This document shows, in pieces, positions 1,346-3,377 of a stretch of DNA of 22,931 nt; positions within the stretch are counted from its first letter, which is position 1, and every line of letters starts with the position of its first letter. The stretch covers positions 1 to 22,931 of the forward strand of contig JAUCGI010000075.1 of assembly GCA_030378035.1 (NCBI GenBank), read 5' to 3'. The DNA is from Desulfobacterales bacterium HSG2 (GTDB taxonomy: Bacteria > Desulfobacterota > Desulfobacteria > Desulfobacterales > 4be13). The position numbers and the translations under genes were made by a program. The notes under the pieces were generated by a model. It ran no database searches. It was not told where the DNA came from and was given only the letters and a program-made list of their open reading frames with translations.

Positions 1346-2860
1346 ATGACAAATCAAACCCAGGCGCGCCTCCCTATTCCCGGTCTGAAAGTGGTGGGAC
1401 GCGGGATTTATTTAAGACCCTATCAGCCTTATGCGTTAAAGGAGATTCTTTTCAGAACGGATAACACCCTGACATACTACTCCAAAGAGACCGGACAAAC
1501 CTATATGATTCCGGAGGGATATGAGGTGAATGACAGTCCGCCCATGCCGGCAAAGCAGGCGCTCAATCAGGTCATTATTGAGGAATCATGGGAACGCTTT
1601 GACAAACAGATGGGACTGGATGCCAATCTCACTGTCAGCGGCGCTCTGTTCAGTATCGACGTTAACGCCAGTCAGTTACAGCAACTGCGTTGTGAAGAAG
1701 AGGCTTATTATGCTCTGAGGAATTCTTTTGTTCCGCTGTGGACTGTTTATCTTCCAACTGTGACAGCGTTTTCTGACATGTCTTTTGATATGGATGTGCC
1801 GACCCCCTTTGACCATTCGAACAGAAGTGCGTATGAGAGATTCTTTGAACGATACGGTACTCACTATGTCAGAAGAGCCTGGGTCGGGGGAAAAGCAATG
1901 CTGGCTTTTACTGTTACCAAGTCATCCAAGATGACGAAAGATGAAATTCAGGCGGGTATCAAAGCCAGCCTTGTAGGTGTGGGAAGCAGCGGAGCGGATG
2001 CAAGTCTGAAAAAGAGCAAGGAGAAACTGCAAAACAATTCCGAATGCACGGTGTTCGGAAAAGGCGGTGATGAGTTAAAGCTCGCGGCGATCAGTTCCCT
2101 TGATGAAGCCCATTACAATGAATGGCTGGCGACTATCAAAGATAATCCTCAGGTGATAGAGCTTGAGGTATCCGGGATTTGGACGCTGACAGACGACAAA
2201 GAGAAGGCCAAGGCTCTTCAGGAGGCATACAGAGAGGCCACTGCTTTCAAACCGATCTCGGCGGTGTTCGGCATCGACAAAGAAATCTATTTTGTGAGAG
2301 GAGACAAATATTTCTGCTATCATATAGACAAATGCGAGAGTGAAAAACCCAGACCGATCATCGAGAAATGGCCGATCTTGTCTCAGCTCGGATTTGATCG
2401 GATTCATGCGGCGTTAAGGTGGGATGGAAAAGATTCGGGCAGAAAACTGTTTCTCTTCAAAAGAGATAAGTATCTCTGCCTGGATATCGACACCGGCAGC
2501 ATCGGTGACGGTTGTCCCAGACCGATTGCACAAGGATGGCCGGGGGTGACTTTTGAGAGAATTGATGCGGCTTTGAACATCGAACCGGATTCGGTTTATT
2601 TTTTCATGGGAAATCGGTATATCCGCTATAGCATGTCTGAAAACCACGCGGATAAGGGGTATCCGGATATCGTCCCCAGGCGCTGGACAGGAGTGACTTT
2701 TGACAGAATTGATGCATCCATCTGCTGGGGGGACGGCAAAGTCTATTTTTTCAGGGGGGATCAGCACATCCGTTACGATATGATAACATACCGTGCGGAT
2801 CCCGGGTACCCCAAGTTCATTATCGGCTGTTATGTGGAAGATTGGAAGTTTTTTGACTAA
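1346..2860 (+). CDS. MACPF (membrane attack complex/perforin) domain protein fused to a C-terminal four-repeat hemopexin-like beta-propeller
   Basis: Perfect MACPF signature Y-G-T-H-Y-x6-G-G (YGTHYVRRAWVGGKA). The C-terminal 200 aa hold four hemopexin-like blades, each with a W..G..F(D/E)RIDAA motif followed by YFF(R/M/K)G(D/N)(K/R/Q)Y..Y (for example IDAALN...YFFMGNRYIRY...GYP). The ATG at 1346 is preceded by GGAGA, 8 nt upstream; the ORF track's TTG at 1331 is less likely. No obvious signal peptide. Confidence 0.85.
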   Translation: MTNQTQARLPIPGLKVVGRGIYLRPYQPYALKEILFRTDNTLTYYSKETGQTYMIPEGYEVNDSPPMPAKQALNQVIIEESWERFDKQMGLDANLTVSGALFSIDVNASQLQQLRCEEEAYYALRNSFVPLWTVYLPTVTAFSDMSFDMDVPTPFDHSNRSAYERFFERYGTHYVRRAWVGGKAMLAFTVTKSSKMTKDEIQAGIKASLVGVGSSGADASLKKSKEKLQNNSECTVFGKGGDELKLAAISSLDEAHYNEWLATIKDNPQVIELEVSGIWTLTDDKEKAKALQEAYREATAFKPISAVFGIDKEIYFVRGDKYFCYHIDKCESEKPRPIIEKWPILSQLGFDRIHAALRWDGKDSGRKLFLFKRDKYLCLDIDTGSIGDGCPRPIAQGWPGVTFERIDAALNIEPDSVYFFMGNRYIRYSMSENHADKGYPDIVPRRWTGVTFDRIDASICWGDGKVYFFRGDQHIRYDMITYRADPGYPKFIIGCYVEDWKFFD

Positions 2861-2885
2861 GGATCGGCAAAAAGAAAGGTTTCAA

Positions 2886-3377
2886 ATGGGAGAGATAGAA
2901 ACAAAAAAAGTCAAGGCAAAAAGAGCCGAGGCTTATGGAATTGTCAAAAACTACGCGCTGGGCGCTCTGGGTGTGGGCATCATACCTTTTCCGCTTGTGG
3001 ATATGGCGGCGCTGACAGGTGTTCAACTAAAAATGCTTCACAGGCTTACCCGGTTGTATAATATCGAATTCTCCGAGCATCTCGGGAAATCCTTTGTCGC
3101 GTCACTGATAGGAGGCGGAATCCCCTTATCCTTTTCTCTTACTCTGGTCAGTCTCATAAAATTCACGCCGATCTCCGGGCAACTGACGGGCATGATCGGC
3201 GTCGCCCTTTTCGGCAGCGCTTCCACTTATGCCATTGGGAGGGTCTTTATCCAGCACTTTGAATCAGGAGGCACATTTCTGACTTTCAACCCGCAGGAGG
3301 CCAGAGGGGACTATGTCCGGCAATTTAAAAAAGGAAAAGATGAGGTCAGGAAAAGCTTTGCAGGAATAAAACCTTAG
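2886..3377 (+). CDS. DUF697 (YcjF-like) domain membrane protein, probably co-transcribed with the MACPF gene
   Basis: ATG 2886 lies 26 nt after the MACPF stop, with AAAGAAAGG 6 nt upstream. Characteristic DUF697 block ALGALGVGIIPFPLVDMAALTGVQLKMLHRLTRLYNIEF. Hydrophobic, glycine-rich segments follow. The ORF track's start at 2793 overlaps the upstream gene and is less likely. Confidence 0.6.
   Translation: MGEIETKKVKAKRAEAYGIVKNYALGALGVGIIPFPLVDMAALTGVQLKMLHRLTRLYNIEFSEHLGKSFVASLIGGGIPLSFSLTLVSLIKFTPISGQLTGMIGVALFGSASTYAIGRVFIQHFESGGTFLTFNPQEARGDYVRQFKKGKDEVRKSFAGIKP

Follow-up and report, generated by a model that had tools for sequence, protein, structure and literature searches.

The 22,931-nucleotide (nt) contig JAUCGI010000075.1 of Desulfobacterales bacterium HSG2 (assembly GCA_030378035.1), analysed over its whole length and here referred to as the window, carries two adjacent genes on the forward strand that code for a protein in which a MACPF domain is fused to a hemopexin-like propeller (the MACPF-hemopexin protein) and for a small DUF697 (YcjF-like) membrane protein (Table 1). 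We find that these two genes are paired in many phyla and diverge together, and we tentatively suggest that they encode a perforin that acts at the inner membrane of its own producer and the membrane partner that docks or restrains it. The original prediction, which was made from the sequence alone, had called MACPF, hemopexin and DUF697 domains, and all three calls are borne out by Pfam matches above the respective cutoffs: MACPF (PF01823; 1.5e-21, 77.9 bits versus a cutoff of 21.5) at residues 149-297, hemopexin (PF00045; 7.6e-24, 83.8 bits versus 21.3) in three stretches, and DUF697 (PF05128; 6.4e-11, 42.7 bits versus 27.7) over profile positions 10-159 of 162. In the NCBI database, both proteins have entries from this organism with 100% identity; the entry for the MACPF-hemopexin protein is named 'hemopexin repeat-containing protein [Desulfobacterales bacterium HSG2]'. 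Both start codons are supported by alignments. The MACPF-hemopexin gene has a TTG at 1331 as an alternative start; we favour the ATG at 1346 because the relatives begin at the equivalent Met. Similarly, an earlier GTG at 2793 was proposed for the DUF697 gene by the list of open reading frames (ORFs), and 29 of 29 relatives start at the Met encoded at 2886. No NCBIfam model matched either protein, and a promoter and terminator scan of positions 1000-4000 gave hits no more numerous than in shuffled sequence.

The MACPF-hemopexin protein has the hallmarks of the MACPF superfamily and no leader peptide. The claim of a perfect MACPF signature stands, as residues 170-182 (YGTHYVRRAWVGG, contained in the longer stretch YGTHYVRRAWVGGKA) are an exact fit to Y/W-G-T/S-H-F/Y-X6-G-G, and G171, H173, W179, G181, G182 and K183 are invariant in an alignment of 30 relatives. 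The N-terminus, MTNQTQARLPIPGLKVVGRG, has no hydrophobic core and hence no signal peptide, as originally proposed. Neither a Sec/Tat leader nor a lipobox was found, and all 30 aligned relatives likewise begin with a hydrophilic N-terminus. Of 176 highly conserved columns, the window's copy deviates at only 8, a number that falls inside the range of the family. Degeneration is therefore rejected, and we regard the window's copy as an ordinary family member.

An AlphaFold2 model of the MACPF-hemopexin protein, built on 30 relatives, has a mean predicted local distance difference test (pLDDT) score of 79. Its N-terminal half is matched by Foldseek to complement C6, Mpf2Ba1 (monomer and pre-pore, 8b6v), GNIP1Aa, perforin, Plu-MACPF, C8 and C9, with E values of 1e-16 to 1e-10 for C6, Mpf2Ba1, GNIP1Aa, perforin and C8; identity in the structural alignments with Mpf-class toxins is only ~13-19% over the MACPF part. 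A profile search of the PDB gave MMP-14 and vitronectin at 3.4e-22 and Mpf2Ba1 at 1.2e-14, with C6, perforin, GNIP1Aa and Plu-MACPF lower; here, residues 52-298 align to GNIP1Aa and residues 87-297 to Mpf2Ba1. In silico, the bent MACPF sheet flanked by two helical clusters is present, with long strands at residues 120-135 and 173-191 and the clusters at residues 80-119 and 192-231. Thus, the CH1/CH2 clusters that the original prediction proposed to look for in an AlphaFold model are seen there, and we refer to them as predicted transmembrane hairpins TMH1 and TMH2, with boundaries drawn from secondary structure and MACPF topology. In TMH1, hydrophobic and polar residues alternate (LDANLTV, FSIDVNAS), with a beta-periodic moment of up to 1.9 versus 0.2 for alpha, while in TMH2 the alternation is confined to the first arm and pLDDT is below 50 at residues 211-216. 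With the Pfam match, the exact signature, the fold and two helical clusters of ~40 residues each, the pore-forming equipment is intact in silico.

The C-terminal half of the model is a four-blade beta-propeller that superposes on the hemopexin domains of vitronectin, MMP-13, MMP-14 and MMP-2 with Foldseek target TM scores (TMt) of 0.74-0.82 and root mean square deviations of 2.3-2.8 Å. Thus, the claim of four hemopexin repeats holds at the level of the blades and requires correction at the level of the motif. The W.G..F.RIDA. motif is clean in blades 3 and 4 alone. In blade 2, which has a 6-residue deletion, the sequence is RIHAAL, and its His replaces an Asp that is present in at least 90% of the relatives; blade 1 is degenerate (ISAVFG...IYFVRGDKYFCY); the family consensus has the DAA motif in three of the four blades. 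In animal hemopexin-domain proteins, blades 1 and 4 are typically linked by a disulfide, which the fold does not require. No conserved Cys pair for such a bond is present among the 30 relatives, the sole invariant Cys being C234 in the MACPF part. The propeller is followed by the nine-residue tail YVEDWKFFD. With a mean top-residue frequency of 0.87, which no other region reaches, the tail is the most conserved part of the protein, and the monomer model shows it as disordered (pLDDT below 50 for residues 493-504). This combination of top conservation and disorder in the monomer is as expected for a docking motif, and the tail may thus serve as one.

The DUF697 protein consists of little more than its domain. 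It has a basic N-terminus, a hydrophobic segment of 33 residues (19-51) that is kinked at a central PFP, and more Gly/Ser-rich helices; alignment and hydropathy then place a strongly conserved FIQHFESGGTFL motif ahead of an amphipathic C-terminal helix. The AlphaFold2 model is all-helical with a pLDDT of 73. The protein resembles no known secretion component in the NCBIfam scan or in Foldseek searches of the PDB. Short stand-alone DUF697 genes also occur, in unrelated contexts without a common neighbourhood. An unannotated 552-amino-acid (aa) protein encoded beside one of them (L072) was considered as a hidden MACPF protein and rejected (hhalign probability 0.2); it is a TolC-like OEP protein.

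The two genes form a pair well beyond the window. Genome and metagenome scans yielded 146 MACPF-hemopexin loci, of which the 105 non-identical ones were used to compare neighbourhoods, and linkage to DUF697 was counted in the 97 of these with at least 600 nt of downstream sequence. In 88 of the 97, a DUF697 gene lies on the same strand at most 1.1 kb downstream, often with a gap of only 4-45 nt. The proposed operon, for which the window itself provides a 25-nt gap and a separate Shine-Dalgarno sequence, is therefore a property of the family. Moreover, in a comparison of 52 loci, the pairwise identities of the MACPF-hemopexin proteins are correlated with those of the DUF697 proteins (r = 0.67, Mantel p ~0.001), from which we conclude that the two genes travel and diverge together. 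Two DUF697 homologues chosen blind from a DUF697 search both adjoin MACPF-hemopexin genes, and the one Mpf-like MACPF gene without hemopexin that was checked has no DUF697 neighbour.

The family is large and widespread. We recovered at least 594 clusters of MACPF-hemopexin relatives at 90% identity (E ≤ 0.001), nearly all ~510 aa long and 45-73% identical; among the best 120 relatives, both Pfam domains are present in all and identity to the query is 56-73%. A search with the MACPF half alone against 1.84 billion representative proteins gave 43 clusters below 1e-30. Carriers include Desulfobacterota, Desulfobacterium, cable bacteria, Methylococcales, Chromatiaceae, Beggiatoaceae (Parabeggiatoa, Thiomargarita), picocyanobacteria, Acidimicrobiia, Chloroflexota, anammox bacteria, SAR324, Entotheonellaceae and Myxococcota, the last with the cultured Plesiocystis pacifica SIR-1 and Paraliomyxa miuraensis SMH-27-4, and some genomes hold two to four copies. 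Identity does not track taxonomy, as the window's protein shares 68% identity with a protein of Entotheonellaceae and only ~52% with proteins of cable bacteria. Judged from these sequence comparisons, the distribution points to horizontal transfer of the family; no full-length member was found in phage and plasmid collections (tblastn) or in a scan of viral contigs. The 43 clusters found with the MACPF half include two longer subfamilies, one that has an Ala/Pro-rich N-terminal extension and a propeller enlarged by a large insert and that ends in the tail YVEDWELFD, and a more distant one (P0276, 'IPLPPIY') that ends in DW.IPLPP[IV]Y and has kept the DUF697 partner. The N-terminal extensions of these longer proteins are Ala/Pro-rich and not hydrophobic, and no leader was found in them. 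A distant relative (P0287, 30% identity) has a lipobox-like leader and a different C-terminal domain.

These numbers bear on two further claims. Hemopexin-like proteins had been described as rare in bacteria, which does not agree with the hemopexin-repeat proteins of Streptomyces, Nostoc and Bacillus plasmids; bacterial members are not especially rare. The domain combination had also been called undescribed. This is correct for the searchable literature, as a full-text search returned no paper describing a MACPF domain together with hemopexin in bacteria, and incorrect for databases, where the architecture is common and is labelled automatically by public pipelines (e.g. 'MAC/Perforin domain/Hemopexin' at JGI). 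Because databases hold hundreds of auto-annotated members and the literature none, the combination is uncharacterised rather than rare. DUF697 was mentioned in only six papers of the searchable literature, and none of them contained a functional study. In other words, the component domains are known, while their fusion, the conserved tail and the conserved operon with DUF697 are undescribed in the searchable literature.

Beyond DUF697, the neighbourhood is variable and consists mostly of housekeeping genes, and all other recurrent neighbours show membrane-protein features. At least two DUF697 copies are present in 25 loci, and a hydrophobic, predicted transmembrane protein of ~250 aa is encoded nearby in 14. 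In picocyanobacteria and Methylococcales (Methylumidiphilus), the pair is part of an extended cluster with the order DUF697 (~180 aa), hydrophobic protein, DUF697 (~280 aa), perforin-hemopexin, DUF697 (~155 aa). The hydrophobic protein of this cluster (214-266 aa) has no Pfam match, the ~280-aa DUF697 protein of L010 has an HHH-like C-terminus, and the cyanobacterial version adds a 173-aa protein without family. In 14-16 loci, an atypical P1B-like P-type ATPase is encoded beside the pair, in many cases within one operon. This ATPase scores near the TIGR01525 cutoff, keeps the DKTG and TGE motifs, has a long helical N-terminal extension and lacks Cys in TM4, where TGP, SAP, IPL or SPL stands in place of the CPC metal motif. 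Directly upstream of the pair in eight Beggiatoaceae-type loci is a gene for a family 2 glycosyltransferase (GT2; Glyco_trans_2_3, 381 aa, with a hydrophobic N-terminus), the product of which could be a glycolipid that either serves as a ligand of the propeller or shields the membrane. ABC transporter genes occur in six loci. Two of these, L092 and L077, are without DUF697 and also contain AMP-binding, thioesterase or polyketide synthase genes; in L092, the transporter gene ends ~50 nt before the ATG of the perforin gene at 8001 and 5 nt before a possible GTG at 7956. In Paraliomyxa miuraensis (L047), an MscS-family channel gene (7603-9282, 559 aa) occupies the usual DUF697 slot directly downstream, and the atypical ATPase gene lies upstream of the perforin gene. 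An MscS gene and a cation-diffusion-facilitator gene beside the pair are single cases. A gene for the P-loop NTPase YcjX (DUF463) is absent from the window and from the recurrent neighbour clusters checked against Pfam. Because psp operons are sigma-54 dependent, we also looked for a sigma-54 promoter pattern upstream of the pair and found it in none of the loci.

The window has several other features. Between the operon and the next gene lies a palindrome in which ~30 tandem CTTAAA/CTTGCA hexamers (3422-3607) are followed by their reverse complement (3644-3774). It folds as a single hairpin of ~350 nt (RNA minimum free energy of -192 kcal/mol, z = -16.4), is likely a transcript end or insulator, and may lie outside the system. 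It recalls the intergenic short direct repeats reported for Beggiatoaceae genomes (PMC4679880). Upstream of the pair, two ORFs overlap in different frames on the forward strand, 202-834 with a TrmB-like helix-turn-helix and 780-1262 with two 4Fe-4S motifs; a frameshift or an error in sequencing may have broken up what is one gene. On the reverse strand at 5706-6743 is a gene for a caspase-SH3 protein (Peptidase_C14, 1.1e-29; bacterial SH3 at the C-terminus; PADLOC 'caspase', 1e-20) with a weak match, below cutoff, to the model for EACC1-associated caspases. The gap before it (5372-5693) contains two tandem 82-nt direct repeats at 5473-5636 that are 88% identical, as well as TTCTCGTTCCCACGC in three copies; a 22-nt inverted repeat (5395-5416 and 5672-5693) flanks the entire arrangement. 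An 831-aa homologue of the major vault protein (MVP) is encoded at 7981-10476 on the forward strand (MVP shoulder 2.5e-28, a Vault_3 repeat and SPFH/Band 7). Neither the caspase-SH3 nor the vault-like gene is a recurrent neighbour in the 105 loci, and both were rejected as partners. Finally, the forward strand at 19944-22181 encodes an unusual protein of 745 aa in which a Peptidase_M50 (site-2 protease) region is fused to HlyD-type membrane-fusion domains.

Table 1. Features of the MACPF-hemopexin/DUF697 locus in the window and of recurrent neighbours at other loci
Feature	Sequence	Positions	Strand	Description
Shine-Dalgarno GGAG of MACPF-hemopexin gene	window	1333-1336	+	9 nt ahead of the ATG, read from the sequence
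MACPF-hemopexin gene	window	1346-2860	+	504 aa plus stop, ATG at 1346
MACPF domain	window	1373-2245	+	residues ~10-300, starts at conserved IPGLxVVGRG motif
Predicted TMH1 (CH1) cluster	window	1583-1702	+	residues ~80-119, helical in soluble model
MACPF signature YGTHYVRRAWVGGKA	window	1853-1897	+	residues 170-184, direct sequence reading
Predicted TMH2 (CH2) cluster	window	1919-2038	+	residues ~192-231, two helices around a Gly/Ser-rich turn
Four-blade hemopexin-like beta-propeller	window	2252-2830	+	residues ~303-495; blades ~303-345, 346-395, 396-446, 447-495
C-terminal tail YVEDWKFFD	window	2831-2857	+	residues 496-504
Shine-Dalgarno-like GAAAGG of DUF697 gene	window	2874-2879	+	6 nt ahead of the ATG, sequence reading
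DUF697 (YcjF-like) small membrane protein gene	window	2886-3377	+	163 aa, 25 nt past the MACPF-hemopexin stop
Hexamer-repeat palindrome	window	3422-3774		after the operon, between DUF697 stop and next gene
Extended cluster	L022	3704-8557		
Extended cluster	L010	2373-6903		
Extended cluster	L053	3327-8635		
Atypical P-type ATPase	L007	2093-4321		
Atypical P-type ATPase	L040	8069-10210		
Atypical P-type ATPase	L047	3751-5808		
Atypical P-type ATPase	L065	8095-10299		
Atypical P-type ATPase, other loci	L039, L042, L050, L053, L083, L086, L087, L118, L121, L130, L153			
GT2 glycosyltransferase	L052	4031-5176		
GT2 glycosyltransferase	L079	1886-3031		
GT2 glycosyltransferase, other loci	L056, L057, L058, L125, L135, L137			
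Region with ABC transporter gene beside perforin gene	L092	4599-9533		transporter ~550 aa, locus without DUF697
Region with ABC transporter gene beside perforin gene	L077	1993-6752		transporter ~550 aa, locus without DUF697

Among known systems, the Mpf toxins (Mpf2Ba1, 8b6u/8b6v; GNIP1Aa, 6fbm; Plu-MACPF/Mpf1Aa1, 2qp2) are the best bacterial matches in sequence and fold. Mpf2Ba1, a MACPF toxin with two domains, assembles into pre-pores and pores (PMC10344926). Short TMH clusters are common to both cases, and no signal peptide is reported for Mpf2Ba1. However, the MACPF-hemopexin protein is not a strict Mpf toxin because its C-terminal domain is a hemopexin propeller, whereas that of the Mpf toxins is a beta-prism or beta-tripod. 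In addition, Mpf2Ba1 needs the removal of its first 25-30 residues, whereas the MACPF-hemopexin protein has no N-terminal inhibitory helix; the conserved C-terminal tail and the DUF697 neighbour belong to the MACPF-hemopexin family; and Mpf hosts are insect-associated, whereas the hosts here are aquatic and sediment bacteria. The propeller itself is shared with vitronectin, matrix metalloproteinases (MMPs), plant PA2-type albumins/lectins and the photopexins of Photorhabdus, from all of which the present protein differs in the fusion to MACPF, the degenerate blade 1, the missing Cys pair and the probable cytoplasmic location. The Bacteroidales secreted antimicrobial proteins (BSAPs), which are antibacterial toxins, are likewise bacterial MACPF proteins with a C-terminal receptor-binding domain. 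Their genes adjoin a membrane-protein gene tied to self-protection. However, BSAPs are secreted and hit outer-membrane proteins or LPS of related strains, whereas the MACPF-hemopexin family is spread over many phyla and has an inner-membrane DUF697 partner; because it also lacks a leader, the protein is not of the secreted BSAP type.

Other comparisons concern pore formers with partners. Bacterial gasdermins, Pepco and EACC1 are likewise leaderless and are proposed to perforate the inner membrane of the producer from the inside. In these systems, an adjacent protease provides the activation, and there is a coupling to sensors (PMC12642450). By contrast, neither a protease nor a sensor is conserved with the MACPF-hemopexin gene, and the fold is unrelated to that of gasdermin; the absence of a protease is the reason for which we do not assign the pair to the gasdermin type. 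In fungi, a MACPF protein with a small dedicated membrane partner is found in the pleurotolysin/ostreolysin systems, in which PlyB needs a small membrane-bound protein that recruits it (PMC6433908). There, the partner is a soluble, lipid-binding aegerolysin; here, it is an integral DUF697 protein from the same operon and without homology, and recruitment would be the analogous step. Finally, the YcjX-YcjF (DUF463-DUF697) system shares the DUF697 membrane protein gene beside a gene for a cytosolic partner with which it is presumed to work. The partner of YcjF is a P-loop NTPase, often with psp genes nearby, whereas the partner here is the MACPF-hemopexin protein and psp genes are absent; because YcjX is missing, the pair is not a YcjXF system. 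The DUF697 protein of the window, moreover, is the domain alone (~160 aa), and E. coli YcjF is longer.

Taking these observations together, we tentatively favour a model in which the MACPF-hemopexin protein is a cytoplasmic perforin that DUF697, via the propeller and/or the tail, either docks at the inner membrane of the same cell or keeps away from it, and that inserts from the inside on a signal. In this model, the two genes would make up one conserved, horizontally mobile module. The first would provide a soluble, leaderless, perforin-type beta-pore former with the lectin-like propeller as its C-terminal receptor domain and an acidic-aromatic tail at the end, and the second a small DUF697 protein in the cytoplasmic membrane. 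The perforin would be produced and retained in the cytoplasm, where its propeller and/or tail would bind the cytoplasm-facing parts of the cognate DUF697 protein, with the outcome that DUF697 either docks the perforin at the inner membrane or keeps it off. A trigger (e.g. binding of a ligand or ion to the propeller, or a signal of membrane stress) would then cause the monomers to oligomerise, and the two helical clusters would unfurl to beta-hairpins and give a large pore from the cytoplasmic side. The result would be a controlled permeabilisation, i.e. regulated autolysis, altruistic death or bulk release. With somewhat more reserve, we suggest that the inside-acting perforin, gated or docked by its cognate DUF697, is an autolysis, altruistic-death or emergency-release device that in some lineages is coupled to the atypical P-type ATPase.

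The model is supported by the pore-forming equipment described above, the lack of a leader, the tight linkage to DUF697, the membrane-protein features of the other recurrent neighbours and the conserved, disordered tail. In addition, Mpf2Ba1 (pre-pore, 8b6v), perforin and C6, which are among the closest solved relatives of the protein, are proven pore formers. Moreover, ycjF (DUF697) is paired in Proteobacteria with ycjX, which codes for a cytosolic P-loop protein, and ycjXF lies beside psp membrane-stress operons (PMC3041696, PMC9239133). By analogy, this pairing would fit DUF697 as the membrane anchor of a cytosolic partner.

Several points weigh against the model. Approximately 9% of the loci are without the DUF697 partner, and no conserved sensor, protease, NTPase or regulator accompanies the pair in the 105 loci. 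The membrane topology of DUF697 is a prediction, and its model has no Foldseek match in the PDB below E = 1. Keeping a lethal pore former in the cytoplasm with a mere 160-aa partner is risky for a cell, and we know of no bacterial MACPF protein for which an attack from the cytoplasmic side has been demonstrated. Mpf2Ba1 and GNIP1Aa, the closest characterised relatives, have the same two-domain layout and are toxins that act on other organisms. Finally, a cellular role that is not lethal would be equally consistent with the very high conservation across phyla.

The original prediction offered a toxin with a membrane partner and a gasdermin-like pore acting from the inside, and both ideas are possible. 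The former is best put as a released toxin of the Mpf type, which we regard as a possible, if doubtful, account. Here, the protein would exit by lysis, in vesicles or by unrecognised export, the propeller would bind a glycan or lipid of the target cell, and the MACPF domain would perforate that cell from the outside; the target would be, for example, a grazing protist, some other eukaryote or a microbial competitor, and DUF697 would serve in export or self-protection. The sequence and structure matches to the insecticidal Mpf2Ba1, GNIP1Aa and Plu-MACPF argue for such a toxin, as do the layout shared with the Mpf toxins (a MACPF domain at the N-terminus plus a beta-rich binding domain at the C-terminus, in ~450-540 aa) and the fact that the Mpf2Ba1 paper mentions no signal peptide. 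Hemopexin-fold plant proteins, two of which are among the structure matches (PDB 3v6n and 3s18), act as lectins, the hosts are free-living environmental bacteria that are assumed to face grazing, and in L092 and L077, which lack DUF697, an ABC transporter gene adjoins the perforin gene. However, an immunity gene is not required for a toxin against eukaryotes, whereas 91% of the loci have kept DUF697, which co-diverges with the perforin and is unlike known secretion components. The identity of 45-73% across phyla, hairpin regions included, is high for a toxin in an arms race, the family has no link to insect-associated or pathogenic bacteria, and the DUF697 gene is missing beside the Mpf-like MACPF gene that was checked.

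A non-lytic role is unlikely. In this case, the pair would be a device for membrane homeostasis or remodelling, such as a gated large channel or a stress sensor, with the MACPF domain repurposed as in astrotactins, BRINPs and Torso-like; non-lytic MACPF proteins are documented in reviews (PMC5483515). The very high conservation of the whole protein, its uniform length and the housekeeping surroundings are consistent with such a role, as are the genomic neighbours that code for an ion pump, an MscS channel and a GT2 glycosyltransferase and the association of ycjXF with psp operons (PMC3041696). By contrast, the signature, the GG pair and both hairpin clusters with their amphipathic alternation are kept as in lytic members, and the patchy distribution, which points to horizontal transfer, argues together with the paralogues in some genomes against a core function.

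More unlikely still is an abortive-infection effector, i.e. a gasdermin-like pore that kills the infected cell from the inside after the propeller has sensed a phage product. Filamentous and aggregate-forming bacteria are rich in conflict systems. The carriers include many of these (Beggiatoaceae, cable bacteria, Myxococcota), the pair combines a leaderless pore former with a membrane partner, and the window also has the caspase-SH3 gene with its PADLOC match; however, this version of the original prediction lacks direct support, as neither the MACPF-hemopexin nor the DUF697 protein matched a PADLOC defence-system model, a conserved protease, NTPase or other sensor gene is absent from the 105 loci, the caspase gene is not a conserved neighbour, the flanks are mainly housekeeping genes and not defence islands, the sequence is more conserved than is usual for genes of defence, and phage, plasmid and viral-contig collections are without members.

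The few bacterial MACPF proteins studied so far are secreted or released toxins, and bacterial MACPF proteins as a group are poorly understood; the MACPF-hemopexin family may reveal a different use of the perforin fold. If our model of a perforin gated by DUF697 is true, it would represent the first inside-out MACPF pore in bacteria and the first molecular role for the widespread DUF697/YcjF family, i.e. that of a membrane receptor or restraint of a cytosolic effector. If the protein is a released toxin, the propeller would be a new receptor-binding module for Mpf toxins, which are used against crop pests. The pair also provides a handle on DUF697/YcjF, a common family that is tied to the phage-shock response solely by gene position, and the cultured carriers and the small size of the pair make experiments feasible.

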